A stretch of 34,898 bases of DNA from an uncultured Anaerolineae bacterium (GCA_964607235.1 CAZSJU010000004.1:1-34898), one strand, 5' to 3'. Shown: positions 19 to 31,248, counted from the stretch's first letter. Notes: a model not told the origin generated them from the letters alone. Numbers and translations are program-made.

Positions 19-47
19 ATTATACATGAAAATGCAGGATGTGTCAA
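19..47 (-). promoter_or_regulatory. sigma70-type promoter firing leftwards out of the window
   Basis: Minus strand reads TTGACA (47->42), a 17-nt spacer, then TATAAT (24->19), a perfect consensus. GGAG (6->3) follows, so a minus-strand gene probably starts just beyond position 1. Confidence 0.6.
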
Positions 48-91: not shown

Positions 92-610
92 TTATTGCGC
101 TTCATCAAGGTGTTCGGCACGGATATGCCCCAGCGTGCGATGCTCCTCCCCCAGCGCCGTCTGTTCCACGAGGCCCTTGAGCGTCGCAAAGGAAACGTCC
201 ACGCCCGCCTGTTGGAATTGCGCCAGGGCTAAACGAAGGTCTTCGTATTCGGCTTTGACCGAGATGACCTTTCCCGCCTGGTCGAGGACTTTTTTGGTGC
301 GGACGGACGTTTGCACCGGTCCTCTAGCATTTTGCGCGGTCAGTCGCATTTGTTGGACCCGGTACTCGAAACGGATGTGGTCGGGGTCAAAGACGCGGAT
401 GCCGAGCGTGCCCAACTCACTGGCCAAAAAGCCGCCCAGCGCCTCAACGCATGCTTGGGGCGCGTCAACAAAGAATAAAAACTCCAGGCGGCCTTTTTTG
501 GTGATGGCCTGCACGACGTGCGCGCTCTTGGCGCCGCGGGCCATCAATCCCTCGATGACGTGCGGGATCGCTTCACCGGATAGATCGTCTACGTTCACTA
601 AAAGTAACAT
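92..610 (-). CDS. LarC C-terminal-domain-like protein (DUF111 fragment, stand-alone 'LarC2')
   Basis: 172-aa ORF with ATG at 610. The motif order VNVDDLSGE .. AITKKGR .. ELGTLGIRVF .. VKAEYEDLRLALAQ matches the generic pattern of the C-terminal half of LarC/DUF111 nickel-insertion proteins (xNxDDxxxE .. QMKKxRP .. TTxGVR .. KPEYEDC). The pattern is recalled from memory. No LarC N-terminal half is present. Confidence 0.6.
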   Translation of the reverse strand: MLLLVNVDDLSGEAIPHVIEGLMARGAKSAHVVQAITKKGRLEFLFFVDAPQACVEALGGFLASELGTLGIRVFDPDHIRFEYRVQQMRLTAQNARGPVQTSVRTKKVLDQAGKVISVKAEYEDLRLALAQFQQAGVDVSFATLKGLVEQTALGEEHRTLGHIRAEHLDEAQ

Positions 611-647
611 GGTTCAATCCAAATTCCAGAACGCCTTGTTCTGAATG

Positions 648-674
648 CAGGGGCGCAGCGTCGCTGCGCCCCTG
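648..674. repeat. 27-nt GC-rich near-perfect palindrome between two co-directional genes
   Basis: CAGGGGCGCAGCG-T-CGCTGCGCCCCTG with 13-nt arms. There is no U-tract on either strand, so it is not a canonical intrinsic terminator. It lies between the stop of the 595-aa gene (717) and the LarC-like start (610). Confidence 0.6.
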
Positions 675-716
675 ACCATAAACTGAATCGTGTCGTTTGA
701 ATAGTGACAGGGAGCG

Positions 717-2504
717 CTATCCTTCGACGTTCAAGTCCTTCAGGATGCGCACGGCCAAGCGGGCTACTTCACGGGCCGTTTCCTTGGCGCCAGGGATGGA
801 GCAGGTGATCTTGGCGGATTTTTCCGCCTTCTTGCCGGCATCCTTCCAGCTATACTTGCCCATCGCCGCAGCGACCACAGCAGGCACGACCGCGTCGATG
901 GTGCAGCAACCCACGTACATCAGTTCCTGGGCCACCGCCGCTGCCACGGTGATCGGCAGAGACAGTTCGGACTTTTTGTTAATGACGGCGTCGGGGATCA
1001 CCTTGTGGCTTAGTCCCTCGAACACAAACTCTTGCCCGTCAATCGTCACCACGGCGTCGATATCCGCGTCAAAGCCCCAGAAGGATTGGGCAAAGGGATG
1101 CTCGCGGCGCGCGCCGCCTTCCAGCTTGGTGAAATGGACGCCGATCTCTTTGCCAAAGAAAAAGCTCAGGATCTTGCCCGCGTTTTCTTCTACCCTGGCC
1201 TTGCGCGCCTGGTCTAGCGCCTGGCAGATATCTTTCAGGTCCTTGCCCGCGCTGAGGGCGTCATAAGCGTACCGGGCGCGGGCATAGAGTGCGTTGGCCC
1301 GGATGCCGTCGGTAGCCTTGATGATGCTCTCGCTGACCGGGCCACGGCGGATTTGTTCCGCCTTGCGGGCGACCGTGTTGGTCGAAAAGGCTGCCACCTC
1401 GGGGTCAATCCACTGTGTGAGCTTGACTTCCCGGACAATGTCGGCCACAGCTTCGACGTCGCCTTTGTGGTCGATCAACGCGTTCATGGCGATGACACAG
1501 TCGGCCGCCAGGTGGGCCAATGGCGGATTGACGGGGCCGCCGCCAAATCCGGCGCCGATCATCGGGCTTTCCATAAAGGCCGCCAGCATCTCGTTCACGG
1601 TCATCATGCCGATGACCGAAGGCGCACCGACGTCCTTGAGGATCATCCCCATGCCGCCGATAAAAGAGGCGGTATCATATTCTTTGCCCGTGCCGCGCAA
1701 GTGCAGCTTTTCGGGCAGCCCGGCAGCCTCGGCGGCGCCTTTGCCGGCCAGGTAGCCAGTGCCCTGGGTAAAGAATTCGCCATACTCGGCGCCGATCATC
1801 CCGTCAGGGTTGATGACCTCTAACACTGCGGCAGCGGCGAGCATCGCGCACTGGATAGGGCTGGGCGAGATGCCGGCGCCACGATAAGCCTTCATCATTG
1901 ACTCTACCGCGACTTTTGTGCCTTTGGTGCACAGGTCGATATAGACCATATCCTCACCCAGCACACTGTGGCCCATCGGCGCGCCACCCGCGACAAAGGC
2001 AGGCACGTCTGCGCCATCGATGCGGACCACCTCGCCCTTCATCATGGCATCGTAGAGCCCCTGGACGGCAGCAAAGCCGGACAACTTGTTGGTCAATTTT
2101 GAGGTGGGTATGGCTGTCACACCTGCACGGCCAACACCGGCCTTCATACGCGCCATGGCGCCCAACTTGCGGTTGCCGGCGGGGACGCCCGCCCGAGAAG
2201 CCGAGCCGGCAATAAGCAGCAGCGTGGCGGTGATGAGCGCCGCGTTCGCCGGAAAGGCACCCGCTTCCATCGCGGCTTTGACGCCCACTTCTACCACGTG
2301 GTCCAGCGGCAATTTTTCAAGGTTCGCGTCGGTCAACGAGATATCGCGACCCTGCAAGATCTCCCACGTCATCGCGTTGGCGGCGCTTATCGCTGCCAGG
2401 TTCAACATGCCGTGTCCCTTGGTCAGGGCCTCGATCCGGTCGCTGGTGCTATACTCGACGTTTGAAGCCATTGCCATAAGAGTGGCTACAATCTCTTGTT
2501 CCAT
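717..2504 (-). CDS. conserved-looking protein of unknown function, 595 aa, Gly/Ala-rich
   Basis: Long ORF. I prefer the ATG at 2504 because GGAGGTG (2517->2511) sits 6 nt upstream; the track start at 2519 is a TTG. I could not recognise any family signature. Notable strings are [20 protein letters not shown] and YVGCCTID. Confidence 0.85.
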
Positions 2505-2771
2505 TGTCAACACCTCCAAGTGTTTTTGATCAGGCTTTCAGAGCCTTGAGATTCTTGAACGCTTGTCAAACAGATTAGAATGTGTAGGCTATAGTTTTGT
2601 GTTTGGGTATCACCTCCACTGCGCATTGATTGAGCAATCTGAGCGTCTGGACGCTGACTTGCGGCAACTCGGCTGTGTTGGGATAGATGTCAGATTAGGC
2701 CAAGGACGCACAAATTCATATCGGGTGAGAAAAATAACACAAATTTGAAAAAGGGGGAAAACAAACTAAAC

Positions 2772-2813
2772 CGCTCCTGTCCAAAACCAATCATACACAG
2801 GAGCGCGTTTTTT
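2772..2813. terminator. 9-bp-stem hairpin with U-tracts on both strands (bidirectional terminator and/or operator)
   Basis: CGCTCCTGT (2772-2780), a 16-nt loop, then ACAGGAGCG (2797-2805). On the plus strand it is followed by CG+TTTTTT, and on the minus strand by G+TTTAGTTTGTTTT. It lies downstream of the PocR regulator gene and overlaps the promoter at 2790-2818. Confidence 0.5.
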
Positions 2814-2818
2814 GTCAA
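2790..2818 (-). promoter_or_regulatory. sigma70-type promoter for the 595-aa gene
   Basis: Minus strand TTGACA (2818->2813), 17 nt, TATGAT (2795->2790). The predicted TSS near 2783 gives a ~280-nt 5' leader before the ATG at 2504. Confidence 0.6.
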
Positions 2819-2918
2819 TAGAAAACTATTGCAAGTTATTGAGATTTGTAGCGATTTATGGAAAGAAGAAAAAGAGTAAAAGCGCTCTTCTAAAGGGTGC
2901 GGGGTGGCAAGAGAGTGA

Positions 2919-3665
2919 CTAATCTGTAACGATATGGGCGATATGGTGCAGTTTGCGCAGCAGAGAGAGCCGTTCTTGTCCGATGTTGGCCAACGTTTCC
3001 CCGGTGCGTTCGAGCAGGTGTGTCAGTTGTTCAGCACGTTCCGCGCTGAGCGAGCGCACAGAGAGCAGCGCGGCACGCAACTGCCCCGAGTTGAACCCAC
3101 AAGCTGCTTCCAGCGCGTCGACTCTGGCGCCGACCGTTTCCCGGTCGGCATCTATCACGATTTGGCCGGCAAAGATCATCGCGACGAATTGTTTTTCCAA
3201 TTCTATGCGGCCCCGGGCGTACAACAGCCCGGCGTGGCACTGGTGTAGTTGGGGCACGGGTTTTTCCTGATGGGCCAGGGTCCGCCAAGAATCGACGCAG
3301 CGTCGATGTCCCTCAGAGTTGCCCAAGACGAGGTCGCAAAACGCGCACGAGTTGCAAGGTGGACCTAGAGGCTGTCCATCCAAACGGGTCAACACAGAAC
3401 CGACGCCCATCGCCTCGGCAAAGATCGCTTGTGCCGACTTGACGCTTTCAAGGGAAAGCGTCTCGGTAGAAGGCTGCTCGGTTGGGCAGCAAGTTTGTGG
3501 CCGTTGTGTTCCAAGCCAGGCTATAATCTCTGGTTTTGAGAAGCGCCATTGTCCGCCTACCTTAAAGCCCGGCAACCGGCCCTCTTTTAGCATATGATAG
3601 AGGGTAGTGCGGTCGACCCGCAAGAACTCTTCGAGTTCGCGGGTGGTCATTAATTCATTCGACAT
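2919..3665 (-). CDS. transcriptional regulator, excisionase/MerR-type HTH fused to a PocR sensory domain
   Basis: The N-terminus TTRELEEFLRVDRTTLYHMLKEGRLPGFKVGGQWRF is an excisionase-family HTH. The C-terminal part has the PocR pattern (CxxCAFC .. C .. QCHAGLLYARGRI..FVAMIFAGQ). The ATG at 3665 has GGAGA 6 nt upstream. The alternative ATG at 3680 would be leaderless. Confidence 0.8.
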   Translation of the reverse strand: MSNELMTTRELEEFLRVDRTTLYHMLKEGRLPGFKVGGQWRFSKPEIIAWLGTQRPQTCCPTEQPSTETLSLESVKSAQAIFAEAMGVGSVLTRLDGQPLGPPCNSCAFCDLVLGNSEGHRRCVDSWRTLAHQEKPVPQLHQCHAGLLYARGRIELEKQFVAMIFAGQIVIDADRETVGARVDALEAACGFNSGQLRAALLSVRSLSAERAEQLTHLLERTGETLANIGQERLSLLRKLHHIAHIVTD

Positions 3666-3685
3666 GACAAATCTCCTCATTGTTC

Positions 3686-3713
3686 ATTTTATCACTTTCC
3701 CATCTTTTTTCAA
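3686..3713 (-). promoter_or_regulatory. sigma70-type promoter (extended -10) for the PocR regulator gene
   Basis: Minus strand TTGAAA (3713->3708), 16 nt, TGaTAAAAT (-10 hexamer at 3691->3686). Confidence 0.5.
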
Positions 3714-3784: not shown

Positions 3785-3816
3785 CCATATCAAGGTTGAT
3801 CAAGGAGGGAAAAAAG

Positions 3817-4854
3817 ATGAAACTAGGCTTGGCAGTTTTGGGTTTTGGTAATGTAGGAAGAGCTTTTGCTCGATTGTTGCTGCGCAAGGCTCCCGCATTG
3901 GCCTCCGATTATGATTTACAGTTATCGGTGACGGGGATCATGACCGCGCGCCACGGCAGCGCCATTGACGCAACCGGCATTGATCTGCAACAGGCGCTAG
4001 CGTTGGCGGCGTCCGGCGCCCCATTGGACGTGCTGTCCACCACTCCACCGCCGGACGATAGCTTGTTATTCTTGCACGCGTGCCCGGCGGATGTCTTGAT
4101 AGAGCTGACGCCCATTAATTTAAAAGACGGCGAACCGGCCGTCAGCCACGTGCGGATGGCGTTGGAAAAAGGGATGCATGTCGTCAGCGCCAACAAGGGA
4201 CCATTGGCCTTTGCCTGCCACGAGTTGCGTGACCTGGCCGCGTCACAAGGTCGCGGGTTTTTGTTCGAAGCCACAGTGATGGATGGTGCACCGGTCCTGG
4301 GCGTGGCGCGGGTGGGACTACCTGCAGCGCGGGTGCTGGGCTTTCGCGGTGTGTTCAACAGCACCACCAATTATATCTTGACCCAGATGGAGACCGGCGT
4401 GTCTTTTGACGAGGCCGTGCGTGCGGCTCAGGCGATGGGCATTGCCGAGACTGACCCTAGCGCCGATGTCGACGGATGGGATGCGACGGTCAAGACGGTG
4501 GTACTGGCCAATGTGCTGCTGGGCGCTGACCTGCGCCCGATCGACGTCGACCGCACCGGCATCCGTGACCTGACGCCGGCGGATTTGCAAGCGGCGTGTG
4601 AACGGGGGGAGCGCATCAAGCTGCTTTGCCAGGCTGAGCGCGAGGGCTCAAGCGGCGGCTGCGTGGCCCGCGTCGCTCCCATGCCTGTGCCGATTTCGGA
4701 CCCGCTGGCCAGCCTGGGCGGCACGTCCAGCATGATCACGCTAGAGACGGACACGCTCAAGCAACTCAGCCTGATCGAGTTTGAGCCACAACCCGCCCAG
4801 ACCGCCTATGGTTTGTTGGCCGACTTGGTCAACCTGGCCCGTGGCTGGTACTGA
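3817..4854 (+). CDS. hom: homoserine dehydrogenase (short form, no ACT domain)
   Basis: 345 aa from the ATG at 3817, with AGGAGG at 3804-3809. Motifs: GFGNVGRAF (NAD fold), VVSANKGPLA, FEATVMDGAPV, NSTTNYIL, and AETDPSADVDGWDATVK (catalytic D/K region). Confidence 0.8.
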   Translation: MKLGLAVLGFGNVGRAFARLLLRKAPALASDYDLQLSVTGIMTARHGSAIDATGIDLQQALALAASGAPLDVLSTTPPPDDSLLFLHACPADVLIELTPINLKDGEPAVSHVRMALEKGMHVVSANKGPLAFACHELRDLAASQGRGFLFEATVMDGAPVLGVARVGLPAARVLGFRGVFNSTTNYILTQMETGVSFDEAVRAAQAMGIAETDPSADVDGWDATVKTVVLANVLLGADLRPIDVDRTGIRDLTPADLQAACERGERIKLLCQAEREGSSGGCVARVAPMPVPISDPLASLGGTSSMITLETDTLKQLSLIEFEPQPAQTAYGLLADLVNLARGWY

Positions 4855-8960: not shown

Positions 8961-11900
8961 TCAAGGCTGCAGCGTGATGCGGGTGATGAGGATCACCCTG
9001 GTGCTCCCGTCATCCAGGACCAGGCGTTGCTGCGTGTCCGGGTCATACAGCCCCGCGATCAAGGCATATGAGCCCGGTGTCCCCTCGGCCGGGATGTCTA
9101 GGACGCGCGTGTCCAGGATGACTTCACCGGGCGCCCAGCCGGTGGTGGGGCGCGTCCAATCGGCAGGCTCTCCGTCCGACTGGGTCAGTAAACTGCCATC
9201 AGGCTTGAGCAGATGCAAAAAGACGCGGTAGCTGGTATGCATCTCGACCTGACCTTGCCAGGCCAGGGTCACCGTGAGCGTGACGGGCGCTTGCAGCGGC
9301 GTGGTGACGGTCGGTTGCAAGTTAGCGCCGAGCAGCGTCACACAGTCGTCTTTTTTGCCTTCTGGGAACGGTTCGTCCCCTGAGACCACGTGGGAGCAGG
9401 TGAGCGTGGCGTCCAGAGGCAACTGCAAGTCAGGCGGTTGCCAGCGTCGCGCCGGTGCCTGGACCTGGAGTTGACCTAGGGTGGCCTGGGGGGTGAAGGT
9501 CTGCTGGGTGACCGGGTCAAAAAGTTCCAGCCCCCAGGTATAGGTGCCGCTTGCCAGGGAGGCGGGCAAGCGTAAAGCGTGCTGCCCACGCCATAGATCG
9601 CCGGCTTGCCATTGTGAGGTGGACCAGTCGCTATGCACTAGCAAGTCCCGGGCATGGACGGTGTGGTCCTGTTGATCTTGCAGCGTCAGTCTAGCCTGCA
9701 GATCAGGTATCCGGTTGGTGTCGAGCTTGTGCCAGAAGAGGGTAACCAGCATGGGGTCGCCAGGAGCAGCTTGGGCGCGGTCTAGGTTGGCGCCAAGCAG
9801 GGTCAAGGGACCCATATCGACGTCCAGGTCATATTGCATCGTGACCGCGTCCGGGTCAAGCGCGTAGGAAGGGCGGGTCAGCGTGACTTGACCCACAACC
9901 AGGTTGGGGCCAGCGATTTGGCCAGACTCGTCAAACACGTCAAGTGGCGCTAGCGTCTCGCGATCAAAGGCAGTGAGCAGCAGATTGTAACGACCAGGCG
10001 GTGTCCCGGACAGCGGTTCGATGTCGAGTCCCTGTACCGCGTAACGCCCGTTGCCCCATGCCGAGCTAGGAGGAAGATCCGCGTAACCACGGCGGGGAAA
10101 GGCTGACTTGTCGCTCCAAAGCTGCCCATCGGGGCCTTGCAGCACCACGGTGGCTTTGTAGCTGCGAGTGGGACGGACATAGGCGCTCCAATAAAAAGCC
10201 AGGTGCAACGTCCCATCGCTGGGCATGTGCGCGGTGCTACGATCATAGCCCAGCAAGCGGACGCCGTCCTTAAAACGGACGTCTAGCGGCACGTCCACGT
10301 CAGCCAGTGTGCTGTCCGCTTGCAGGCCGGAATGGCGTAAAGGTGTGTCCGTGCGGTCAACCACAAACACCTTGAACGCCAACAACATTAACGCCAAAAG
10401 CGCTAGCGTGGCAATGTGCGCCCAGTTAAGTTGTGTGATAAAGCGATGCGTGGTCTGAGAGCGGTTCGGTGATGTGGCTTGGATACGGTCGGCGAAATAA
10501 TCCCTCACGCTAATGTAGGTGACAAAGGCAACGCTGGCCAGTGCCAGTATGGAGAGCATCGTGGCCCCAGCCCGAATTGGCGTGCTGCCCCAATCAATCT
10601 CCACCGTGTGGCGACCGGCCGACAGGTCAAAGGTAATCAACCCTTCGGGCGTGCTGGGGATGATCTCGACGGGGCGGCCGTCGACACGAACCTGCCAGCC
10701 CGCAAAGGCGAACGTCAGGTAACGGGCACGGGTGGCTTGGGGCGTCTCGATCTCTAGTTTAGCATAGTTGGGCGCATATCTGGCCCAGTGAATCGTCGTT
10801 CCATCGGGCAACGACTCGGTGTCAAAGCGAGCGATAGTGATTTCTCCATCGTCACTAGCAGAGTCCAGGGCAGCGGCATATTGGGCCTCCAACGGCGAGT
10901 CGATAGGACGAGCCTGTACAGTCACTGGGAAATAGCTACCCTCAGGATCCACACCCACCAAGCGACTAAGATGTTCGTAGGCAAAAAGATCGAGAATGTT
11001 AGGCTGGGGTTTAGTAGGACAGTAGCCAGTAGGTGGATAGGTGAACGGCAAAGCCGTGACGATCAATAATGTCACGCTTAAGACTAACAACAAGGATAGG
11101 GGCAGCTTGTGCCCACCCCATCCCAATGAGAGTAAAGCGGTGACAAAGGCGCCAGCGAGAAGTGATAGCGGCAGCACCGCGCGACCGACAAAGCGCCAGG
11201 GGAACTGCACAAAGGCAACCAAGGGCAGATTCTCCCACAGCGGGAGCGAAGCACGTGTGGCCATGAATACCATGATAACCGCGGAAAGGACCAGGAAAAC
11301 GACCGTGACCCAACGTTCACGGCTTGCGGCGTCCGGCTGGAAGGTGTCCTTCCGGGGGCGCCAGCACCATAGCCCTCCTATGCTTCCCAACAAAGCCAGC
11401 AGCGCCAGTGGCAGGCCGACCGGCAGCTGCAACGGCGGATTCAAAAGAGCCGAATCAACAGGCTCGGGGGGCGCAAATACCTCAGAGAGGTTGACAAAAT
11501 TGTAGTGAAAGTCATTGTTGCGCGTCATGCGCGACAAATGCAGTTGCACATAGTCCTTCTCTAGCACGGCTGGCGCCCAGAAAAAGGCGGTCAGTCCCAG
11601 GCTTAGCATCAGGGCGACGCCTGCGGTTACCAGGTGACCGCGCCGTCCTCGAGCCCACCACAAGGCCAACAAGTAAGCGACCAGGAAAGGTGTGAACAGC
11701 AAGCTAGAGATGTTGTGGGTCAAGTACAGCAGGGCCAATGACCCGACGCTGCTCAACAGATAGCGCGCCTGACCACCCAAGAGCAAGCGACGAAAGGCCC
11801 ACAAAATAAAAGGAAATAATGCCAGCGCCACCGATTCGGGCATATTGCCACGCACCAGGGCATCGATGAAAGTATAAGGCGCATAAACATAGGCCACAGC

Positions 11901-12287
11901 CGCGACGAGACCGGCCCATCTTCCGAACAGGTCGCGTCCCAACAGATAGACCCCGATCGCCGAAGCGAGCATCGCCAATACATAAACCAGGTTGAGGGCC
12001 AGCGGCAAAGGCAGGCCTATCAGGTGCAGCGCCAGCCCCAGGTAGTAAGAAAAGGCAGCCCGATAATTAAAAAAAGGATAGCCGTAACCAAACGCCAAGT
12101 CTGGGACCCAACGGGAGCCAAGTAACCCATCCTGCAGGGCATAGCGCATGGCCACGATGCGAAAGTAGTGCAATCCACCATCGTGTGTGCAGGGCGGATC
12201 GTCACGCAGCAAAGGGATGACGGCAGTAATCATCAGCAAGACGAGCACACCCAGCAACCCGATTTCTTTGGCCTGTTGTGACTTCAT
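8961..12287 (-). CDS. large polytopic membrane protein, GT-C-fold glycosyltransferase-like (COG5617-like N-terminus) with three C-terminal beta-module repeats
   Basis: 1108 aa. The N-terminal ~600 aa contain many hydrophobic helices (..HDGGLHYFR.., YGYPFFNYRAAFSYYL). The C-terminal ~450 aa hold three ~120-aa modules ending in the pattern PPGxYxLxLxxFD/YDP. Confidence 0.7.
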   Translation of the reverse strand: MKSQQAKEIGLLGVLVLLMITAVIPLLRDDPPCTHDGGLHYFRIVAMRYALQDGLLGSRWVPDLAFGYGYPFFNYRAAFSYYLGLALHLIGLPLPLALNLVYVLAMLASAIGVYLLGRDLFGRWAGLVAAVAYVYAPYTFIDALVRGNMPESVALALFPFILWAFRRLLLGGQARYLLSSVGSLALLYLTHNISSLLFTPFLVAYLLALWWARGRRGHLVTAGVALMLSLGLTAFFWAPAVLEKDYVQLHLSRMTRNNDFHYNFVNLSEVFAPPEPVDSALLNPPLQLPVGLPLALLALLGSIGGLWCWRPRKDTFQPDAASRERWVTVVFLVLSAVIMVFMATRASLPLWENLPLVAFVQFPWRFVGRAVLPLSLLAGAFVTALLSLGWGGHKLPLSLLLVLSVTLLIVTALPFTYPPTGYCPTKPQPNILDLFAYEHLSRLVGVDPEGSYFPVTVQARPIDSPLEAQYAAALDSASDDGEITIARFDTESLPDGTTIHWARYAPNYAKLEIETPQATRARYLTFAFAGWQVRVDGRPVEIIPSTPEGLITFDLSAGRHTVEIDWGSTPIRAGATMLSILALASVAFVTYISVRDYFADRIQATSPNRSQTTHRFITQLNWAHIATLALLALMLLAFKVFVVDRTDTPLRHSGLQADSTLADVDVPLDVRFKDGVRLLGYDRSTAHMPSDGTLHLAFYWSAYVRPTRSYKATVVLQGPDGQLWSDKSAFPRRGYADLPPSSAWGNGRYAVQGLDIEPLSGTPPGRYNLLLTAFDRETLAPLDVFDESGQIAGPNLVVGQVTLTRPSYALDPDAVTMQYDLDVDMGPLTLLGANLDRAQAAPGDPMLVTLFWHKLDTNRIPDLQARLTLQDQQDHTVHARDLLVHSDWSTSQWQAGDLWRGQHALRLPASLASGTYTWGLELFDPVTQQTFTPQATLGQLQVQAPARRWQPPDLQLPLDATLTCSHVVSGDEPFPEGKKDDCVTLLGANLQPTVTTPLQAPVTLTVTLAWQGQVEMHTSYRVFLHLLKPDGSLLTQSDGEPADWTRPTTGWAPGEVILDTRVLDIPAEGTPGSYALIAGLYDPDTQQRLVLDDGSTRVILITRITLQP

Positions 12288-12335
12288 AATGCGTTATCTC
12301 ACTCTTTCTTTTGCCCTGCAAGAAAAGGCTGGCGT

Positions 12336-12364
12336 ATTATAGCACGGTCAGCCCTCAGGTGCCA
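12336..12364 (-). promoter_or_regulatory. extended -10 promoter for the 1108-aa gene
   Basis: Minus strand TGcTATAAT (-10 at 12341->12336) with a weak -35 TGGCAC (12364->12359). Confidence 0.4.
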
Positions 12365-12498
12365 GAGCCGGTTTGCGATGTCTGCTCTACAATGCCAGCT
12401 TTCAAGCGGCTGACATCTCGACCGGTCATTTCCCTGATGGAGGAGAAATTGGACAAGCTTGTTCCGCCTACGCCGAGAGAACACAACGCCGCTGATTA

Positions 12499-14499
12499 TT
12501 AACGCAACAGCACGGGTCCCACAACCTTCAGATCGCCGGCTGGGTTACCGGCAGCATCTAGCACCGGCACGTTGACGATATCGGGAAAAGTGTACATTCC
12601 CAGGTGTATCCAGTACTGGCCCTGCGGTGCGTCGGCGTTTGTCTCAATAGAAAAGCGGGTCAGCACCAGGTCGCCGGTCTGCCATGCTGCGCTGTCCAGG
12701 CCCGCCATATCGTGTTGTCCCCAGCGTTTTCCTTCCGCGTCTACCAGATGCACAAAGAGGTGATAGTCGATGCCAGTCGGCGCTGGTCCGTCCAGCCACC
12801 AGGCCACCGAAAACTGGAGCGGTTGATGAGATTGCGCGTCGTCAATGCCGTAGGCGAGCCATTCGACACCGTTGGCCAGCCGGCGCGGTGCGGACAGCGG
12901 CGTCAGCCCTGCCAACACATCATCGCGGCTCGCATTGTCGCGCTGGAATAGCCAGTAACGAGTGTTCCCTGGCGCCGCTATGGGGTCCAGTGCGGTGGTG
13001 CCCGACAGTGCGCGCAACTGCACGGTGGCTGTTTGCACGTCGGGCGTGGTGATGTAAACTGCCGGTCCGAGGGGAAAGACCAATGCTTCGCGGCCGTCTA
13101 TCAGGCGGTGAGGCAGGTGCCGAGGCAGCAACACGTCCAAAGCGGCCGGTCGGTTATCCCACAGCGGGTCGTCCCCTTGAGCCACGAGCAGGATCTCGGC
13201 GCCACACGCTTGCGCAGCCGCTCCGGCGGCCTGGGCCGTTTGCCATAGTGGCCCGACCGTCGGACCATAGCCGTTGGGTGTGTCGTGCTGGGTCACAAAC
13301 CGGTTGAACGCCCGGTTCAGGTAGATTTGCCATCCCCCAATCAAGAGCAACAATCCCACCACGCTGATCATGCCATAGCGGCCCCAGCGTGGGCCATAAC
13401 GTTTCTGGAGCTGGGCGAGCCCGTCGCTCAACAGCAGGGCGATGATCAGATGTTGGACCGGATAGAGCAAGATGAAATAGTGTGGGTAAACCGGTTGGGT
13501 GTGACGGGTTTGGAGCGCTACTGGCACGAGCAGCCACAGCAACAGTACCAGGTTGCGTCCCAATGACGCCGGACGGGGTCGGTCTTTTTCTTGCGCCTGG
13601 CGCACGATGCGCGCGATCAAATAGATCACGCCTAGACCCAGCAACGCCATCTCGACCCCGTCGAGCCAGCGTAGAGGCGGCAGCGTGTCCAGGAACTGCG
13701 CATAGCGGGTGCCGGCCAGGTCTTGGTAATGATAGCCGCTGCTCAGCCAGACTGCAAAACGCGTCGCTTGCCAGTCAATCTGGGCAGGGCCACCTCCCAG
13801 ATCGAGAAACCCGCGCAGGTTGGCCCAACCGTGGGTCCCGGCGTCGTGGTAGAGATAGGGCGCAGCGCACAGCACCAAGACCGCTACGCTGACCAGCAGC
13901 GGTCGACGTTGTAGCTGCGCGCGGAAGGGCAGCAAGATCAACACCAGGATGATCAAAAAAACCAGTCCTCCCAGATGAGTGCCGACGAGGGCGACCAACG
14001 CCAGGCTGGCGCCCAGCAACGCCCAGGGCCGGCGCTCCACGATCAGCAAGAGTAAGAAAAAGATGAAAAGCGTCGTGGCCAACGGCCAGTTCTGAGTCCA
14101 CATCTTGCGCGCGTAATAGATCGCCCAGGGATTGACGGCCAGCAGCGCGGCAGCGATAAAGCCGACCCGGCGACTGAAAAAGCGGGCGCCCAGCACAAGC
14201 GTCATGCCTACCCCGGCTGTGTGGATCAAGGCAATGACCGCGATGGCCAGCCGGGGATCTGGGGTCAGTGCTAGGGGCAACGCCATCAAGTAGACTTGCA
14301 GCGGCGGATGGGCCGGCCCTTGCGAGGATTGGGGGCCTATGATGGGGAAATGGCCCTGGCGGACCAGTGCTAACGCCTGGCGCGTGATGCCGGCCTCGTC
14401 GGCTTTGAATTCGGCCAGGTCCAACTGCGTCAGGCGCAGGGCCGCGGCCAGCAGCAAGAGCAGCATTAGAGATAACCAGCGAGATTTTTGGGTTGTCAT
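12499..14499 (-). CDS. ArnT/PMT-like (GT39/GT83-type) membrane glycosyltransferase with one C-terminal beta module
   Basis: 666 aa. It has a first-loop DE motif (FKADEAGITRQAL), then ~11 hydrophobic helices and one C-terminal module (..YHLFVHLVDAEGKRWGQHD..APQGQYWIHLGMY..). The start overlaps the upstream stop as ATGA (14496-14499). Confidence 0.75.
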   Translation of the reverse strand: MTTQKSRWLSLMLLLLLAAALRLTQLDLAEFKADEAGITRQALALVRQGHFPIIGPQSSQGPAHPPLQVYLMALPLALTPDPRLAIAVIALIHTAGVGMTLVLGARFFSRRVGFIAAALLAVNPWAIYYARKMWTQNWPLATTLFIFFLLLLIVERRPWALLGASLALVALVGTHLGGLVFLIILVLILLPFRAQLQRRPLLVSVAVLVLCAAPYLYHDAGTHGWANLRGFLDLGGGPAQIDWQATRFAVWLSSGYHYQDLAGTRYAQFLDTLPPLRWLDGVEMALLGLGVIYLIARIVRQAQEKDRPRPASLGRNLVLLLWLLVPVALQTRHTQPVYPHYFILLYPVQHLIIALLLSDGLAQLQKRYGPRWGRYGMISVVGLLLLIGGWQIYLNRAFNRFVTQHDTPNGYGPTVGPLWQTAQAAGAAAQACGAEILLVAQGDDPLWDNRPAALDVLLPRHLPHRLIDGREALVFPLGPAVYITTPDVQTATVQLRALSGTTALDPIAAPGNTRYWLFQRDNASRDDVLAGLTPLSAPRRLANGVEWLAYGIDDAQSHQPLQFSVAWWLDGPAPTGIDYHLFVHLVDAEGKRWGQHDMAGLDSAAWQTGDLVLTRFSIETNADAPQGQYWIHLGMYTFPDIVNVPVLDAAGNPAGDLKVVGPVLLR

Positions 14500-17400
14500 G
14501 GGATATTGACCTCAATCGGCAGAAGGATCTGGTCGTTGGGCAATATGTTCCCCGCCGCGTCATAGACCGGCAGGCGCGCGCCGCTGAGCGGATCATATAG
14601 GCCCACGGCGACGTGGTAAGCGCCGGGAGGCGCGTCGTCCAGGACCGGCAAGGCCAATTCGTCAATGATGACCTGACCGGGCGCCCAGCTATGGGTCGGG
14701 GCTGCGCCGTTGGCCGGAGGGCGGTCCACCTGACCATAAATAGTATCGCGAGTGCCGGGGCCGCGCAAGTGGACAAAGACGATATAGCTCAGGTCGGTGG
14801 GACCGTTCGCTTGCCAATACAGCGTCAATGGGATCTGTTGGCCACCCTTTACTTCTAGCGCACCCGGGTGCTTTAGCGCAGCGTTCGGGAGATCAAAGCC
14901 GCGCAGTTGCACTTGTTGACCCAATCTAAGGTCCAGCGGGTAGGCAATACCCGCTGGCAGGCTAAAAAGCCGGTCACGGGCCAGGACTGTGAGCCTGGTC
15001 AGGACATAGTTGTCGGCCCACAGGGGCGTGCCGTCTGCATCTAGCACATTGAGCCGCAAATCATAGAGGCCGGCCGGTAAATCGGGCGGGATGGGCAAGT
15101 CATAACGCACCTGCTCCAGTTCCCCGTCACGCCATTGGCCCGTCGCATAGGGGCTCAAGGGGAGGGTTTGCCCCACTATGGGGCTGCCGGCAGGGGCGTC
15201 TGGGACCAACAACTGCCAGCGCAAGGCATAGTCAGTGTCGGGAGCGGTCGTGGCTTGCCAGAACAAGTCAAAGGACACCACGTCCCCCGAGGGCACTTGC
15301 GCCGGTGGCGGGTGCTGTCCCAGTAATCTCAGCGGGCCGGCCGCGCGGGGTGGGTCGATCCGCTGTGTCATATCTACCTCGCCCGGTGTGGGCGGACGTT
15401 CGGGGGCGGCGATGGTGACATGGCCCAAGTCCAGGCTCAAACCGGCAAACCTGCCGACCGTGTCCCAGGCACTCAGCCCCTTACCGCTGTCCGGATCAAA
15501 TGCGCCAAGTGCGACGCGATACTGGCCCGGCGGGATAGCTGGGGGCAAGGATAATTTAAAAGTCTGGTCGCTCCATTCGTTCGGCCTCCAGGCTGAGGGA
15601 TGTCGATAGTCAGCGTCCAATATCTCTTGCCCACCTTCTAGCCAGGTGCGCCCTGTCGCATCCCGCAAATGCAAGACTGCACGATAATCGCCGGAGAGAG
15701 GGGCTAACGCCGACCAGCGGACGACAACCGGCAGATCGTCAGGCCAGGACAACGGCACGCTGGGAAGCACGGTGCCGACGAGGCTCAATCGCTCCCCAAA
15801 TCGGGCTTTGGAGGGCGTCAGACGTGCTATACAATTACTCGGGTCGGTTGATGCCTCTGGAATGATCTGATAAAAAGTGGCACCAGCGATGAAAGCGACC
15901 TCGTGCAGTTCGCCGTAGCACGCGAGCGCTTGTTGCAAGTGTTGCATAGTGACCGGCGAAGCGGCGGATAGAGCGACGTACCATATATGTCCGGACTCGG
16001 TTTGTAGGGCGTGCAGACGCTCGGCGACCTGGGCCGCATTGCGGGCATCGGCCAGAGAGACTAGCGTGGCCGGGCCATTGTATGTACGAGTCAACGCCGC
16101 TTGTGTGTCAAGCAAGACCACGTCCTCCCGCGCGGCGTGCTCGCTCAGATAGGCCGCTTGTGCCAAGGGTGCTGGGTTGCGATAGAGCCGGGCGTAAATG
16201 ATCCCGGCGATCCGTTTTTCATAGACCAGCGTCGCATCGCCCTCCCCTTGGGGCCAATGCGTGCCTTGTTGCGGAGGGTGCAGGAAATAGTCGGCCTGGG
16301 AGAGGGTTGCTGTTGACAAGGGCACCGTTTGCCCGACGAATAGCGAGGCCAGCGGTGGGATTGAAGGGCTGGCGACGATTAACTGTTCGGCGTTGGGTTG
16401 CTCGTTTAACCAACGAGCCGCAGCGCCCGACCCTTCGCCCCATCCAACCGGCAACCATTCCAGGGCTGTCCGTGGCCCGCCCAACAAGGGATTAAAAAAA
16501 GCCAGCGGCGTGAACAGATAGGGCAAGAGGATCCCGATTTGGAAAAGGGCTACAAGAGCGCTGGAGAAACGATACAGTCTTTTCCCTCTGTCCCCTAGCC
16601 ATTCACTTATGCCTTGCCAACCCAATGCGGCGACCAGGGTTAGCGCTGGAAAGACGGGCAGCAGATAACGGTCGTGTTTCTTGCCGACCAGGGTGAGGCA
16701 CAGGCCGAACCCCAGTGCCCAACCGGTGAGCGCGAGGGCCCACTTGTCCTCACTTGTTCTCACTTGCCCTCGCTTGCCCTCCCTGCCAGAGGCGTGTCGG
16801 CGTGGGCTGCGGCGGCGCAGATGGCGCCACAGGCCGGCGAGCCAACCGAGCAGCACCCAGGGTGAGGCGCGCAGGAGCCCCACCACCGGGTAAAAGCCCG
16901 CGCCAGGTGTAAAGGTGTCCTGGCCGTGAAAGAAAATGGGCCGCAGCGCGCCCTCCACGTGCCGCTCCCCGACATCCAATAGCCCGCGCAAGGTGGACAG
17001 CGGCGCTGTCCACATGGCGGGGTAAAAGGCCAGGAAGGCCAGCCCGGCTGTCACTCCCCACAAGGTCAAGGCGATGAGGGCCTGATGCCACGTGAGGCGA
17101 CGCGTGAGCGCGGCGGACAAGAGCATGATGCCGGCAAAAGGCGCCAGCAGGCCGCCGGGCGTCTTGGTGAGCGCGGCCAGACCGGCCAGCAGACCTGACA
17201 AGGCGGCCCAGCGATAAGGGGCGGGTTGGGCGGGGCGGACGGTGAGCAATAGCGTCAGGATTGACAAGGTCGTCGCCGTGGCCAGCAGGCCGTCCACGTG
17301 CAACAGACCGCTATGGCCGATCAAAAAAGGGTCCAGGGCCAGTAAAAGGGCCGCCAACCAGGCGGTTTTGCGCCCCCACAATCGCGCGCTCAGGGCAAAG

Positions 17401-17813
17401 GCGCCGGCGACGCCCAAGCTCGTGACCACGGCGACCAGGACACGCCCCGCCGGCAAAAAGAAAGCCAGGGGGCCAAAGGCGGCGGCGTTTTGGGGAGAGA
17501 GGCCGGCCAGTCCGTCCAACCAGTTCAAATGGGCTGCGGCGGTGTCGGGGTCCAGCCAGCAGTGAATCTGTACCCCCAGGCTGCCCAGCCACATCGTCGT
17601 CACACCCGGGTGACCCGTGGCCGGCAATGCACTCAGATCACCCGCTGCCAACGCCTGGCGAAAGTGGATCGAACGTTGCACCCACGCTGGTTCGTCCGGT
17701 GTCACATAGCGGCCGCCGGGCGCCAGGCGTAACAACAGCGCCAGGGCAAAGATCAGCGCCAGGGACAGGTCATACAAGTTTTGCGACTCTATGGCTGTGG
17801 CTTTGTGCTGCAT
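14496..17813 (-). CDS. ArnT/PMT-like (GT39/GT83-type) membrane glycosyltransferase with three C-terminal beta modules
   Basis: 1105 aa from the ATG at 17813, with AGGAG at 17829->17825; the track start at 17825 is a GTG. It has a first-loop DE motif (YVTPDEPAWVQRS), a polytopic N-terminal half and three C-terminal ~120-aa modules. Confidence 0.75.
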   Translation of the reverse strand: MQHKATAIESQNLYDLSLALIFALALLLRLAPGGRYVTPDEPAWVQRSIHFRQALAAGDLSALPATGHPGVTTMWLGSLGVQIHCWLDPDTAAAHLNWLDGLAGLSPQNAAAFGPLAFFLPAGRVLVAVVTSLGVAGAFALSARLWGRKTAWLAALLLALDPFLIGHSGLLHVDGLLATATTLSILTLLLTVRPAQPAPYRWAALSGLLAGLAALTKTPGGLLAPFAGIMLLSAALTRRLTWHQALIALTLWGVTAGLAFLAFYPAMWTAPLSTLRGLLDVGERHVEGALRPIFFHGQDTFTPGAGFYPVVGLLRASPWVLLGWLAGLWRHLRRRSPRRHASGREGKRGQVRTSEDKWALALTGWALGFGLCLTLVGKKHDRYLLPVFPALTLVAALGWQGISEWLGDRGKRLYRFSSALVALFQIGILLPYLFTPLAFFNPLLGGPRTALEWLPVGWGEGSGAAARWLNEQPNAEQLIVASPSIPPLASLFVGQTVPLSTATLSQADYFLHPPQQGTHWPQGEGDATLVYEKRIAGIIYARLYRNPAPLAQAAYLSEHAAREDVVLLDTQAALTRTYNGPATLVSLADARNAAQVAERLHALQTESGHIWYVALSAASPVTMQHLQQALACYGELHEVAFIAGATFYQIIPEASTDPSNCIARLTPSKARFGERLSLVGTVLPSVPLSWPDDLPVVVRWSALAPLSGDYRAVLHLRDATGRTWLEGGQEILDADYRHPSAWRPNEWSDQTFKLSLPPAIPPGQYRVALGAFDPDSGKGLSAWDTVGRFAGLSLDLGHVTIAAPERPPTPGEVDMTQRIDPPRAAGPLRLLGQHPPPAQVPSGDVVSFDLFWQATTAPDTDYALRWQLLVPDAPAGSPIVGQTLPLSPYATGQWRDGELEQVRYDLPIPPDLPAGLYDLRLNVLDADGTPLWADNYVLTRLTVLARDRLFSLPAGIAYPLDLRLGQQVQLRGFDLPNAALKHPGALEVKGGQQIPLTLYWQANGPTDLSYIVFVHLRGPGTRDTIYGQVDRPPANGAAPTHSWAPGQVIIDELALPVLDDAPPGAYHVAVGLYDPLSGARLPVYDAAGNILPNDQILLPIEVNIP
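16741..16780. repeat. four tandem imperfect 10-mers inside the 1105-aa CDS
   Basis: CACTTGTCCT CACTTGTTCT CACTTGCCCT CGCTTGCCCT, exactly head to tail. The period is not a multiple of 3. It encodes ..GREGKRGQVRTSEDK.. in a loop region. Confidence 0.8.
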
Positions 17814-17860
17814 ACAGCGTCTCACTCCTGGGGAAGGCCTGGGTGATTCCAGGCGCGGGG

Positions 17861-30141: not shown

Positions 30142-31248
30142 ATGTCAAGTGTTCCCCTCATCATCTTTGGACTGGGCCGCGTAGGCCGCACCTTTTTGCG
30201 CCAACTTGTCAGTAACCGGCAGGCGTTGGCTCAGCGATTGGACCTCGATCTGGTCGTGGTGGGGCTGGCTGCGCTTGAGCACATGGTCTTTGATCCGGCC
30301 GGTCTAACAGATGAGCGCTTGCTGGCCTTGGTGAAAGCGTTGGAAAGCGGCGACTCTTTGCTCGATTTTGAGGGCGGGCAAGTCAAAGCCAGCAATCAAG
30401 AACTGCTGGCAAGGTTGTTCGACACCCTGGGTGAGGTGCCGATTATCATCGACACGACCAACGCCGAAGAGATGGCCACGGACCTGATTTACGCGCTCGA
30501 TCAGGGATGTTGTATGGCGTTGACCAACGGGCGGGCGCTGGTGGGCCCCTGGTCGACCAGCCGGCGCTTTTTCGAGTCGCCGCACGTGCGTTTCGAAGCG
30601 ACGGTGGGGGCCGGCCTGCTGGCGACGTGTCTGCTGCGCGACCTGTTGGAGACCGGCGATAAGGCGAGCGCGATCGAGGGGTCGCTGAGCGCGACGGTGG
30701 GATATATTTGCTCGCAGCTTCAGCTCGGCGTGCCCTTTTCCGCAGCGCTGGCGCAGGCACAAGACCTGGGCTACACGGAACATGACCCCCGCGAGGATTT
30801 GAACGGTCAGGACTCGGCCCGCAAGATTTTGATCATGGGCCGGTTGGCCGGCTGGCCGCTGGAAATGCGTGACGTGCAAGTAGAGCGGCTTTGTTCTCCC
30901 AATCTGGCGAGCTTGCCGCCGGGTCTCTTTATGGAGCGGGTCTCGCAACTGGATGATAACATGGCCCAGCGGGTCCAGGTGGCGCGGGAGGATGGATGCG
31001 TGCTGCGCTACGTGGCCGAGATCGACGCGGGGGGCGCACGTGTGGGCCTGCGTGCCGTGCCGCGCGTCAGTCAGTTGGGCGTGTTGCAAGGATCCGAGTG
31101 CCTGGTGACGATATTTACCGCCCGTTACACAGTGTCGCCGCTGACCATTTCGGGGCGTGGGGTCGGCCCTGAACTGGGCGCCGCCGCGTTGTTGCGGGAT
31201 GTCGTGTCGCTGGCTTGCTCTCGTTTTAGGATGTCGCCAATAGAATAA
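30142..31248 (+). CDS. ThrA-type homoserine dehydrogenase-like protein, stand-alone, with NK lysine replaced
   Basis: 368 aa. Motifs: IIFGLGRVGRTF (NAD fold), FEATVGAGL, and DLGYTEHDPREDLNGQDSARKILIMGR, which closely follows the ThrA/Hom6 GYTEPDPRDDLxGxDVARK block. The usual xxNK motif reads ALTNGRAL. Confidence 0.75.
   Translation: MSSVPLIIFGLGRVGRTFLRQLVSNRQALAQRLDLDLVVVGLAALEHMVFDPAGLTDERLLALVKALESGDSLLDFEGGQVKASNQELLARLFDTLGEVPIIIDTTNAEEMATDLIYALDQGCCMALTNGRALVGPWSTSRRFFESPHVRFEATVGAGLLATCLLRDLLETGDKASAIEGSLSATVGYICSQLQLGVPFSAALAQAQDLGYTEHDPREDLNGQDSARKILIMGRLAGWPLEMRDVQVERLCSPNLASLPPGLFMERVSQLDDNMAQRVQVAREDGCVLRYVAEIDAGGARVGLRAVPRVSQLGVLQGSECLVTIFTARYTVSPLTISGRGVGPELGAAALLRDVVSLACSRFRMSPIE

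Follow-up and report, generated by a model that had tools for sequence, protein, structure and literature searches.

A conserved gene pair of an orphan helical protein and a stand-alone LarC2, a candidate nickel-pincer system linked to H4MPT C1 metabolism

Introduction

The chemistry of the nickel-pincer (NPN) cofactor is reversible hydride transfer, and in an enzyme that uses it a lysine that tethers the cofactor and a histidine that ligates the nickel are expected within one pocket. The LarC cyclometallase binds CTP through its LarC2 half, and the features of the LarC2 class are hexamer formation and the CTP-dependent CMPylation that activates the pincer precursor. The closest described gene arrangement is the lar cluster (LarA, LarB, LarC1/LarC2, LarD and LarE in Lactiplantibacillus plantarum), in which maturation genes surround a single client, LarA, in the service of 2-hydroxyacid racemisation. 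The LarC of Lactiplantibacillus is naturally made from two ORFs (PMC13510736). Many genomes, from hundreds of prokaryotes, make NPN without LarA and the client enzymes concerned are being sought; AKR-type NphT and ornithine cyclodeaminase are new NPN scaffolds that were discovered through such gene adjacency (PMC13524815).

Two other systems are relevant to the locus described here, namely the H4MPT-dependent formaldehyde oxidation of methylotrophs (Fae, MtdA/B, Mch and FhcABCD) and the pseudoknot riboswitches, which combine an H-type pseudoknot with a competing terminator. We have analysed a stretch of 34,898 nucleotides from an uncultured Anaerolineae bacterium (the window), near one edge of which a stand-alone LarC2 is encoded beside a 595-aa protein, referred to here as protein A or simply A.

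Results

The elements listed in the initial annotation (a regulator, promoters, a leader, the 595-aa ORF, a palindrome and LarC2) are all present on the minus strand in the places given for them. The regulator is a 253-aa ORF (2919..3680, minus) with HTH_17 (residues 10-59, E 1e-13) and PocR (residues 75-234, E 2.7e-26) domains, both exceeding their Pfam cut-offs. Translation probably begins at the ATG at 3665, which follows AGGAG and yields 248 aa, as in the gene predicted on the near-identical contig L006. As an equivalog of Salmonella PocR it was rejected (27.5 bits vs a cut-off of 500). The promoter scan, which detected 5 promoter-like sites in 4 kb where 1.7 were expected, found TTGAAA-16-TAAAAT with a TG extension at the regulator (3713..3686, minus; 10/12 matches), TTGACA-17-TATGAT at the A gene (2818..2790, minus; 11/12) and a perfect sigma-70-type site, TTGACA-17-TATAAT (19..47, minus; 12/12), at the window edge. 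The A gene (717..2504, minus) begins with the ATG at 2504 behind the SD GGAGGTG (2517..2511, minus), while an alternative TTG start at 2519 would give 600 aa. Just 3' of its stop codon, a GC palindrome of 27 nt, CAGGGGCGCAGCG-A-CGCTGCGCCCCTG (674..648, minus), forms a hairpin without a U-tract, and RNAfold gave -41 kcal/mol for the A-LarC2 intergenic region that includes it. At the corresponding site, L010, L012, L016, L023, L024, L028 and L073 also have strong hairpins, though with other sequences. The GC hairpin probably fixes a high A:LarC2 ratio.

Protein A had been described as impossible to place in any family, and this has held up. Sequence searches of Pfam, NCBIfam and the PDB found no relative, none of 18 diverse members of the A family matched a Pfam or NCBIfam family, and Foldseek found no match in the PDB (top entry E 0.011, TM 0.11) despite a confident AF2 model (pLDDT 91.1, pTM 0.91). 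Helices make up most of the predicted fold, which has a single small sheet. Homology to the LarA superfamily received no support from Pfam or NCBIfam, and the LarA-type alpha/beta fold is absent from the model. A is a soluble protein of 595 aa, largely helical, and its family is uncharacterised. There were 171 matches to it in 1.84e9 representatives, approximately 17 of them full-length lineages, and a pattern-seeded scan of 185,579 species genomes, which may miss divergent members, confirmed 81 relatives. Identity between Chloroflexota and Thermoleophilia is 75-86%, and that to methanogens is around 50%. The conserved polar residues include His 31, 179, 268 and 331 and Lys 113, 136, 290 and 381, each conserved at 95% or above, as well as four Arg. 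The family alignment contains no conserved Cys, and the protein has neither a His-rich patch nor a PP-loop.

NCBIfam identified the downstream ORF of 172 aa (92..610, minus) as a stand-alone LarC2 (NF052512, 66 bits; cut-off 50), and in Pfam it aligned with the C-terminal portion of Ni_insertion (PF01969, E 3e-19, profile positions 248-362 of 375). Its PDB sequence matches were LarC (12bi, residues 270-388) and MK0293 (3c19). Comparison of 16 A-adjacent LarC2 proteins with two C-terminal domains of full-length LarC identified D8, K38, K39, R41, G70, H78, K106 and E149 as invariant. In a tree in which the canonical set came from Methanosarcinales only, 61 A-adjacent LarC2 proteins formed one clade, to which the LarC2 domains of complete LarC proteins did not belong. 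Their identity to the corresponding domain of the LarC from the same genome is only 26-33%, but they keep the shared invariant residues. The A-adjacent proteins score 40-73 bits on the LarC2 model compared with 111 bits for the canonical domain. Given that it belongs to a clade of its own, the paired LarC2 looks like an accessory dedicated to A, as had been suggested at the outset.

The core finding of this study is that A and LarC2 are a conserved two-gene unit. Our census covered 74 testable loci, 40 archaeal and 34 bacterial (the latter flanked by 5 kb or more), and in 70 of them A is immediately followed by a LarC2-like gene, so that the adjacency initially noted in one genome extends across two domains of life. 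Four loci depart from this, and three of them carry lar genes, LarC2 or others, just upstream of A. The pair occurs in Chloroflexota, Thermoleophilia, Desulfobacterota, Clostridia and many methanogens, and in Methanosarcinales the A-type LarC2 is additional to a complete LarC.

Neither Pfam analysis of the 24 main ORFs, which covered LarA-like, LarB, LarE and LarC1 genes, nor tblastn with LarB, LarC1, LarE and full-length LarC found any such gene in the window, and an 11.8-kb sister contig also lacks LarB, LarC1 and LarE, which leaves the 172-aa LarC2 with no LarC1 partner in either. The initial annotation was correct on this point for the window, but the absence is local, as A sits elsewhere inside LarE/LarB/LarC1 clusters. 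The window ends 91 nt past the LarC2 stop codon, and the lack of lar or partner genes is therefore partly an edge effect. The orders LarE-LarB-LarC1-A-LarC2 (L024), LarC2-LarB-LarC1-A (L026), A-LarC2-LarB-LarC1 (L017) and A-LarC2-LarB-LarC (Methanosarcina) were found, with all of the lar genes concerned exceeding their NCBIfam cut-offs, and in several genomes A fills the slot within the lar cluster that LarA would hold. No LarA-like gene was recognised among the annotated neighbour clusters. Within 10 kb of A, LarB was seen in 14 of the 40 archaeal loci and 11 of the 34 bacterial ones and LarE in only two loci, and LarC1 or full-length LarC accompanies A in 21 of the 74. LarB and LarC adjoin A in 25 loci, the window itself not being one of them.

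The elements had also been taken to form one compact module, yet contig L006 continues past window position 1 with DUF2193, MtdB and H4MPT genes, so that A-LarC2 is followed by MtdB/H4MPT genes in the layout seen in other bacteria and the H4MPT C1-oxidation genes begin just past the window edge. MtdB-like, Fhc, Ftr or Mch genes lie within 10 kb in 19 of the 34 bacterial loci, usually directly downstream of A. There the pair heads operons for an MtdB-like methylene-H4MPT dehydrogenase, the formyltransferase/hydrolase complex, the cyclohydrolase and H4MPT biosynthesis, this last represented by an RFAP-synthase-like GHMP kinase, DUF447, a flavoprotein, a pterin-binding protein and ATP-grasp ligases. 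The hosts of A are only methanogens or bacteria with H4MPT genes beside A (approximately half of the well-flanked bacterial loci); A is missing from most methanogens and from H4MPT-producing classical methylotrophs. The A clusters showed neither a Fae-type gene nor a methanol or methylamine dehydrogenase of known type, and the only hints of a substrate at these loci are a MIP channel and the PocR domain. The tie between A and H4MPT C1 metabolism is one of gene neighbourhood.

Leaders of related loci contain a riboswitch-like RNA element, of which 91 copies were validated overall. Its core is a conserved 64 nt comprising a P1 helix and an H-type pseudoknot, both covarying: all five P1 pairs show compensatory changes across 76 distinct copies, and pseudoknot pair 12-53 is GC in 48, AU in 13 and GU in 8 copies. 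A terminator lies 3' of the element in 65 of 81 distinct copies, its 5' arm overlapping the aptamer's 3' strand. Some copies are arranged in tandem. The regulon is a narrow one, with the element preceding A, the DUF2180/DUF2193-MIP operon or an RFAP-synthase-like-LarB-LarC1-A cluster in 80 of 82 well-flanked copies. No family in Rfam 15 matched it, and in these relatives it is probably an ON riboswitch, for which it is our candidate.

The leader of the A gene in the window (approximately 279 nt; 2783..2505, minus) contains a decayed version of this element. Alignment with related leaders identified the remnants CTCACCC (2729..2723, minus) and CAGCCGAGTTGCCG (2675..2662, minus), the GGAGGTGAT box (2617..2609, minus), a small hairpin (2546..2532, minus) and the SD, and showed that the terminator has been lost. 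Covariance model R1 found no aptamer in 2505-2783 even with filters off, nor did this leader match Rfam. An intact aptamer with its terminator lies at 5354-5445 on L006, approximately 100 nt beyond window position 1 and upstream of the DUF2193 start at 5983, and it is towards this RNA and the DUF2193 operon that the outward promoter at 19..47 is directed. The ligand induction envisaged in the initial annotation is suggested by the leaders of relatives, but the window's own leader has lost the element. The PocR regulator, by contrast, had been counted as part of the module and is not conserved with it: it is present at three of the 34 bacterial loci and in the window, all from Chloroflexota, and is lineage-specific.

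Discussion

Like the lar clusters, the A loci place maturation genes around one client, with LarC split into LarC1 and LarC2 ORFs and with LarB, LarC1 and LarE equivalogs flanking A in several genomes. The lar operon includes LarD, and A is similarly co-regulated with a MIP-family channel. However, A differs from the client LarA in sequence, in its mostly helical model and in having no PDB match, its context is H4MPT C1 metabolism rather than 2-hydroxyacid racemisation, and its LarC2 forms a separate clade that is extra to a complete LarC in Methanosarcinales. With the NphT and ornithine cyclodeaminase NPN enzymes A would share hydride transfer, but those enzymes have known NAD(P)-type folds (TIM barrel and cyclodeaminase, respectively), whilst A has no recognisable fold relative, keeps a private LarC2 and is known from genes and a model. 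Genes similar to those of the methylotroph H4MPT modules follow A-LarC2 in one direction, but the upstream positions are taken by A-LarC2 and DUF2193-MIP, and the bacteria concerned are anaerobes (Chloroflexota, Desulfobacterota, Clostridia and Thermoleophilia). The A-linked RNA shares an aptamer core, an overlapping terminator, tandem copies and a narrow regulon with described pseudoknot riboswitches, but has no Rfam 15 family, and the copy before A in the window is degenerate.

We consider it an even call that A represents a new scaffold among nickel-pincer-dependent enzymes, served by a LarC2 of its own and linked to C1 metabolism. Its LarC2 paralogue would supply or install the cofactor. 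Because NPN chemistry is hydride transfer and A is found in methanogens and in H4MPT-gene neighbourhoods, we propose that A may catalyse a hydride transfer that feeds or interconverts a C1 unit of the H4MPT pathway; it could, for instance, oxidise some small neutral C1 compound as far as the formaldehyde/methylene-H4MPT level. In relatives, one terminator-coupled RNA element may gate both A and the DUF2180-DUF2193-MIP channel-flavoprotein operon, whereas in the window control of A has probably passed from the decayed RNA to the strong promoter together with the PocR-domain regulator encoded nearby, PocR domains being ligand sensors. A more far-reaching version, which we advance tentatively, is that A founds a new nickel-pincer fold class that performs an unassigned hydride-transfer step on or into the H4MPT C1 pool, with a private LarC2 that loads the cofactor and a new riboswitch class that switches the system on in bacteria by sensing the pathway substrate or a pathway cofactor. 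Candidate activities would then be a nickel-pincer methanol/formaldehyde-level dehydrogenase or a methylene/methenyl-H4MPT oxidoreductase.

It is unlikely, in our judgement, that A and its LarC2-like partner instead make or modify another cofactor (H4MPT, a methanofuran/methylofuran step or a nucleotide-activated intermediate), the LarC2-like protein being a generic CTP-dependent nucleotidyl-transfer or scaffold subunit outside NPN synthesis. Such a role would suit the position of the bacterial pair directly beside H4MPT-biosynthesis genes, the lack of a further lar gene within 10 kb at most archaeal loci and the low LarC2 scores of the A-adjacent proteins (only 40-73 vs 111 bits). Stand-alone LarC2-like proteins for which we know of no function do exist, MK0293 among them, so that likeness to LarC2 need not imply NPN. 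However, just 81 relatives were confirmed by a scan that can miss divergent members, and, being absent from most methanogens and from classical methylotrophs with H4MPT, A cannot be a general biosynthetic step. Furthermore, LarB, LarC1 and LarE, for which no role outside NPN synthesis is known to us, flank A in at least 25 loci, and A even lies between LarC1 and LarC2.

That same position in L024, together with the near-constant LarC2 neighbour and the lack of nearby LarC1 and LarE in the window and many other loci, could indicate that A is a part of NPN maturation, whether carrier or storage protein, nickel-delivery partner of LarC2 or replacement for LarC1 or LarE, and not a cofactor user. 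We rate this lower again. With LarC1 or full-length LarC present beside it in 21 loci, A is no substitute for LarC1, and A has no His-rich patch, conserved Cys or PP-loop. Its size and extreme conservation suit an abundant catalytic protein, as do the strong promoter, the strong SD and a hairpin that would favour A over LarC2, and co-regulation with a catabolic-looking MIP channel, a flavoprotein and an MtdB-like gene suggests metabolism. An ordinary PocR-regulated inducible operon, in which the LarC2 gene survives as a fragment of a split larC and is functionally unconnected with A, would account for the ligand-sensing domain and for the regulator's own promoter near that of A, and two-ORF LarC does occur naturally in Lactiplantibacillus (PMC13510736). 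This seems very improbable and is already contradicted by the neighbourhood census, in which the A-LarC2 adjacency spans Bacteria and Archaea with LarC2 ORFs that are intact and conserved, while the PocR gene is present at few Chloroflexota loci only.

The A family is a directly testable candidate for an NPN client, lacking a fold relative and nearly always accompanied by its own LarC2. The regulon holds a second orphan module (DUF2193, DUF2180 and the MIP channel) that is widespread in methanogens and has no assigned function, and the RNA is a possible new riboswitch outside Rfam whose ligand would name the pathway substrate or cofactor. Even without a nickel-pincer role, an unannotated protein with 75-86% cross-phylum identity merits characterisation. 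If the proposed role is true, nickel-pincer chemistry would join archaeal-type C1 metabolism in methanogens and anaerobic bacteria.

Layout of the module

All the elements that the initial annotation had listed between positions 92 and 3713 are present on the minus strand. They begin with a 253-aa regulator carrying Pfam HTH_17 and PocR domains (2919..3680), with a promoter-like site upstream of it from a promoter scan (3713..3686), followed by a promoter, TTGACA-17-TATGAT (2818..2790; 11/12 matches), and a leader of ~279 nt with an SD sequence GGAGGTG at 2517..2511 and an ATG at 2504. The 595-aa ORF (717..2504), whose product we call A, is followed by the palindrome CAGGGGCGCAGCG-A-CGCTGCGCCCCTG (674..648) and a 172-aa ORF (92..610) which matches the C-terminal part of Pfam Ni_insertion alone and lies above the NCBIfam cut-off for LarC2, the CTP-binding half of the LarC cyclometallase (66 vs 50 bits). 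A perfect promoter, TTGACA-17-TATAAT (19-47, minus strand), lies 45 nt past the LarC2 stop codon and points outward. Pfam scans of the 24 main ORFs and tblastn with LarB, LarC1, LarE and full-length LarC revealed no other lar gene in the window, which ends 91 nt past LarC2, so that the lack of downstream partners reflects the window's edge.

The remaining functions in the window are unrelated, comprising homoserine dehydrogenases, large glycosyltransferase-like membrane proteins, polyphosphate kinase, MutY, an aldehyde dehydrogenase and kinases. Two genes belong to the homoserine-dehydrogenase family (3796-4854 and 30142-31248, both on the plus strand), the former divergent from the PocR regulator. 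Three successive very large ORFs (1108, 666 and 1109 aa) at 8961-17825 on the minus strand have glycosyltransferase-like membrane domains of the PMT_2 or PTPS-related kind, and the plus-strand AT-skew peak of 0.354 at 11-12 kb lies inside the 5' (N-terminal) part of the 1108-aa ORF (8961-12287).

Protein A and its relatives

Neither A nor any of 18 diverse relatives matched a family in Pfam or NCBIfam, and no accepted relative was found among PDB sequences, whether A alone or an 18-member profile was used. Besides a designed helical repeat, the profile matched in the PDB only the uncharacterised cupin-like protein 4h7l; this sole non-designed match is a marginal one of 78 residues (E 3.6e-4) over A residues ~443-520, a small beta-sheet region, and was taken as chance. 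An AlphaFold2 model built from an 18-sequence alignment (pLDDT 91.1, pTM 0.91) predicts a mostly helical fold with one small sheet at 454-496, and Foldseek returned no match to this model among 350,542 PDB chains (best E 0.011, TM 0.11), the hits being helical-bundle noise. The initial annotation's view that A could not be placed in any family was borne out by these searches. Across 1.84 billion cluster representatives, an exhaustive HMMER search matched A to only 171, of which ~17 are full-length matches with 35-54% identity, and no match ties A to a larger family; homology with DUF2193 was ruled out (hhalign probability 1%). Source annotations call A a "hypothetical protein" with one exception, P0274 (a protein of the P0122 cluster; JGI), labelled "methylthioribose-1-phosphate isomerase", a name that none of the profile searches bears out and that is probably an automatic mis-annotation. 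Nor is the A family described in the literature that we found on the nickel-pincer cofactor and tetrahydromethanopterin (H4MPT), on LarB/LarC and Methanosarcina, or on DUF2193.

Scanning one genome for each of 185,579 species, with a pattern seeded from six closer members of the family, confirmed 81 relatives and yielded 79 loci. Bacterial carriers are found in Anaerolineales and other Chloroflexota, Thermoleophilia, Desulfobacterota (including the cultured Dethiosulfatarculus sandiegensis), Clostridia and Synergistaceae, and the archaeal carriers include many Methanosarcinales, Methanobacteriales, Methanocellales and Methanomicrobiales. A is 75-86% identical between Chloroflexota and Thermoleophilia and ~50% identical to the methanogen members. 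Residues at least 95% conserved include H31, H179, H268 and H331, K113, K136, K290 and K381, R112, R119, R126 and R466, and several Asp and Glu; conservation analysis revealed no conserved Cys in the family. A is rich in Ala (16%) and Gly (10%) and soluble by hydropathy; with two weakly hydrophobic stretches and a GRAVY of 0.19, a membrane protein was ruled out.

Association with LarC2 and lar clusters

Of the 74 loci that extend 700 nt or more downstream of A, 70 have a LarC2-like gene directly 3' of A by tblastn; in three of the four others, LarC2 or further genes of the lar set lie immediately upstream of A. All 61 LarC2 proteins encoded next to A group in a single clade that excludes the C-terminal domains of complete LarC, and in Methanosarcinales the two LarC2 copies of one genome are only 26-33% identical. 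Residues D8, K38, K39, R41, H78, K106 and E149 are nevertheless invariant and common to both groups. A dedicated accessory for the orphan protein, as initially proposed, is supported by the adjacency and by the separate clade.

The lack of lar context is a feature of the window that fails beyond it, where LarE, LarB and LarC1 (the nickel-binding half of LarC) cluster with A in several genomes. Curated models identify the order LarE (304 bits) - LarB - LarC1-only - A - LarC2 in a Desulfobacteraceae locus (L024), LarC2 - LarB - LarC1 - A in Gracilibacter (L026), A - LarC2 - LarB (279 bits) - LarC1-only in a Thermoleophilia locus (L017), and A - LarC2-like - LarB - full-length LarC in Methanosarcina. 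As A lies within the lar clusters of several genomes, it holds the place of a client enzyme. Among the 34 bacterial loci whose flanks reach 5 kb or more, the PocR regulator, which had been taken for a conserved part of the module, is found beside A in only 3; these and the window, which also has it, are all from Chloroflexota. Of the earlier interpretation, the orphan enzyme with its dedicated accessory is supported; the conserved PocR component and the absence of lar context are not.

An H4MPT C1 neighbourhood

A near-identical sister contig, L006 (A 100% and regulator 99.6% identical), runs beyond window position 1. Its order is LarC2, DUF2193, a 68-aa zinc-ribbon-like protein, an FMN-reductase-like flavoprotein, an MtdB-like methylene-H4MPT dehydrogenase, an ATP-grasp ligase and then the first formyltransferase/hydrolase-type gene. 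A 720-kb Chloroflexota contig has PocR - A - LarC2 - MtdB-like - ATP-grasp - Fhc/Fwd-type subunits - Ftr - Mch - RimK - CitG. Such H4MPT C1 genes lie within 10 kb of A in 19 of 34 bacterial loci, often accompanied by H4MPT-biosynthesis genes; no Fae-type gene or known C1 dehydrogenase was found in these clusters. The archaeal carriers are without exception methanogens, which use H4MPT natively. We found no paper joining nickel-pincer chemistry with H4MPT.

A candidate riboswitch shared with DUF2193

Alignment of close relatives' leaders uncovered a conserved 64-nt element which sits before A and also before DUF2180/DUF2193 genes, with the consensus gGCU ACCC uGCGGAuGGGA CYGCgAGGCUG ... AUCCGC ... 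CAGCCGAGCUGCC. The element corresponds to no Rfam 15 family, and Rfam searches at E up to 1 gave no match for the window or for four related loci. A covariance model and one metagenome pattern scan of at least 120 matching stretches, with a threshold of at least 46 bits, gave at least 91 copies, at least 76 of them distinct, among the matches listed; examples are L016:152-215, L010:2921-2984 and L006:5354-5420, with at least 88 more in alignment A7. Pattern matches beside integrase genes reached only 31-36 bits; they are probably unrelated and were excluded.

Among the matches listed, the P1 helix has compensatory changes at all five pairs, with 96.6% of cells paired, and a pseudoknot absent from the covariance model also covaries (pair 12-53: GC 48, AU 13, GU 8); support for an alternative hairpin, 12-15/22-25, is weaker. 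A hairpin and U-run follow 65 of 81 distinct copies among the matches listed, the 5' arm reusing the aptamer's 3' strand. This overlap points to a transcriptional-switch layout in which the folded aptamer would prevent termination, so that the element may act as an ON switch, and we regard it as a candidate new riboswitch class with a narrow target set. Among the matches listed, the first gene downstream is DUF2193 for 46 copies, DUF2180 then DUF2193 for 11, A for 21, an RFAP-synthase-like gene then LarB for two (with LarC1 and A where the contig is long enough) and an MtdB-like gene for one; none was recognised for two, and the flank was too short to tell for seven. Two or three copies stand in tandem at several loci. 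Arrays before DUF2193 (L113, L118, L126, L134, L168, L178, L196) have a terminator for each copy, and the three copies in L134 are ~112 nt apart. Upstream of LarB in the Desulfobacteraceae cluster, a weak match (L024:3055-3119; 17 bits, E 0.34) precedes two hairpins with U-runs and may be a diverged copy.

The conserved module that shares the element with A consists of DUF2180 (or the 68-aa zinc-ribbon-like protein), DUF2193, a MIP channel and an iron-sulfur-flavoprotein-like gene, the last two types lying 3' of DUF2193; it is located at L001:12010-15560, at L006:5983-8600 and at many metagenome loci. According to a 2025 study (PMC12375889), DUF2193 binds Fe-S clusters and has no known function; of the methanogen genomes with DUF2193, 91% encode a MIP or porin beside it.

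The A leader of the window has no intact riboswitch: the covariance model, even with filters off, finds no aptamer in 2505-2783. Alignment with related leaders reveals remnants (CTCACCC, 2729..2723; CAGCCGAGTTGCCG, 2675..2662; the GGAGGTGAT box, 2617..2609) and the loss of the element's core and terminator. On L006, an intact aptamer and terminator lie ~100-190 nt past window position 1, between the counterpart of the 47..19 promoter and DUF2193. Given the decayed leader, A seems freed from RNA control in the window genome; what apparently remains is its strong promoter together with the PocR regulator nearby. Two other Chloroflexota loci retain both regulator and element. The GGAGGUGAU box (window 2609-2617), a perfect 9-nt Shine-Dalgarno complement in mid-leader ~100 nt before the real SD, is conserved and recurs after the terminator in L004, L005, L009-L012, L016, L027 and L081. 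It may serve ribosomes as a loading or standby site, or mark where a leader peptide starts; the short ORFs 3' of it are not conserved. At least eight bacterial loci have a strong GC hairpin at the same point past the A stop codon; the hairpin sequences are unrelated, and most lack a clear U-tract. Conservation of position without sequence suggests an mRNA-end or attenuation element that would favour A over LarC2.

Interpretation

Taken together, A's orphan status, its conservation, the adjacency to LarC2, membership of lar clusters, the H4MPT genes nearby and the shared RNA control are best accounted for if A is a new scaffold that uses the nickel-pincer cofactor as a client, has a LarC2 paralogue dedicated to it, and acts in the H4MPT C1 pathway or feeds into it. 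LarC2 is known to CMPylate the pincer precursor ahead of nickel insertion by LarC1 (PMC13510736), and the paralogue would be the cofactor loader for A, which would use the cofactor for chemistry that may be hydride transfer, on a putative C1 substrate. Adjacency of this kind recently led to nickel-pincer enzymes other than LarA, and there are many cofactor-producing genomes that lack LarA (PMC13524815).

The A-LarC2 pair might instead make another cofactor, a reading in keeping with the H4MPT-biosynthesis genes nearby; with the LarE, LarB and LarC1 neighbours in view, we consider it unlikely. That A is a maturation factor rather than a client would agree with its place between LarC1 and LarC2 in L024; LarC1 or full-length LarC is present alongside A in other loci, and we think this improbable. 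An ordinary PocR operon beside an unrelated LarC2 fragment is how the window might look by itself; with LarC2 next to A in 70 of 74 loci and PocR in so few, such an explanation is very hard to credit. The finding is directly testable, and nothing known explains it.
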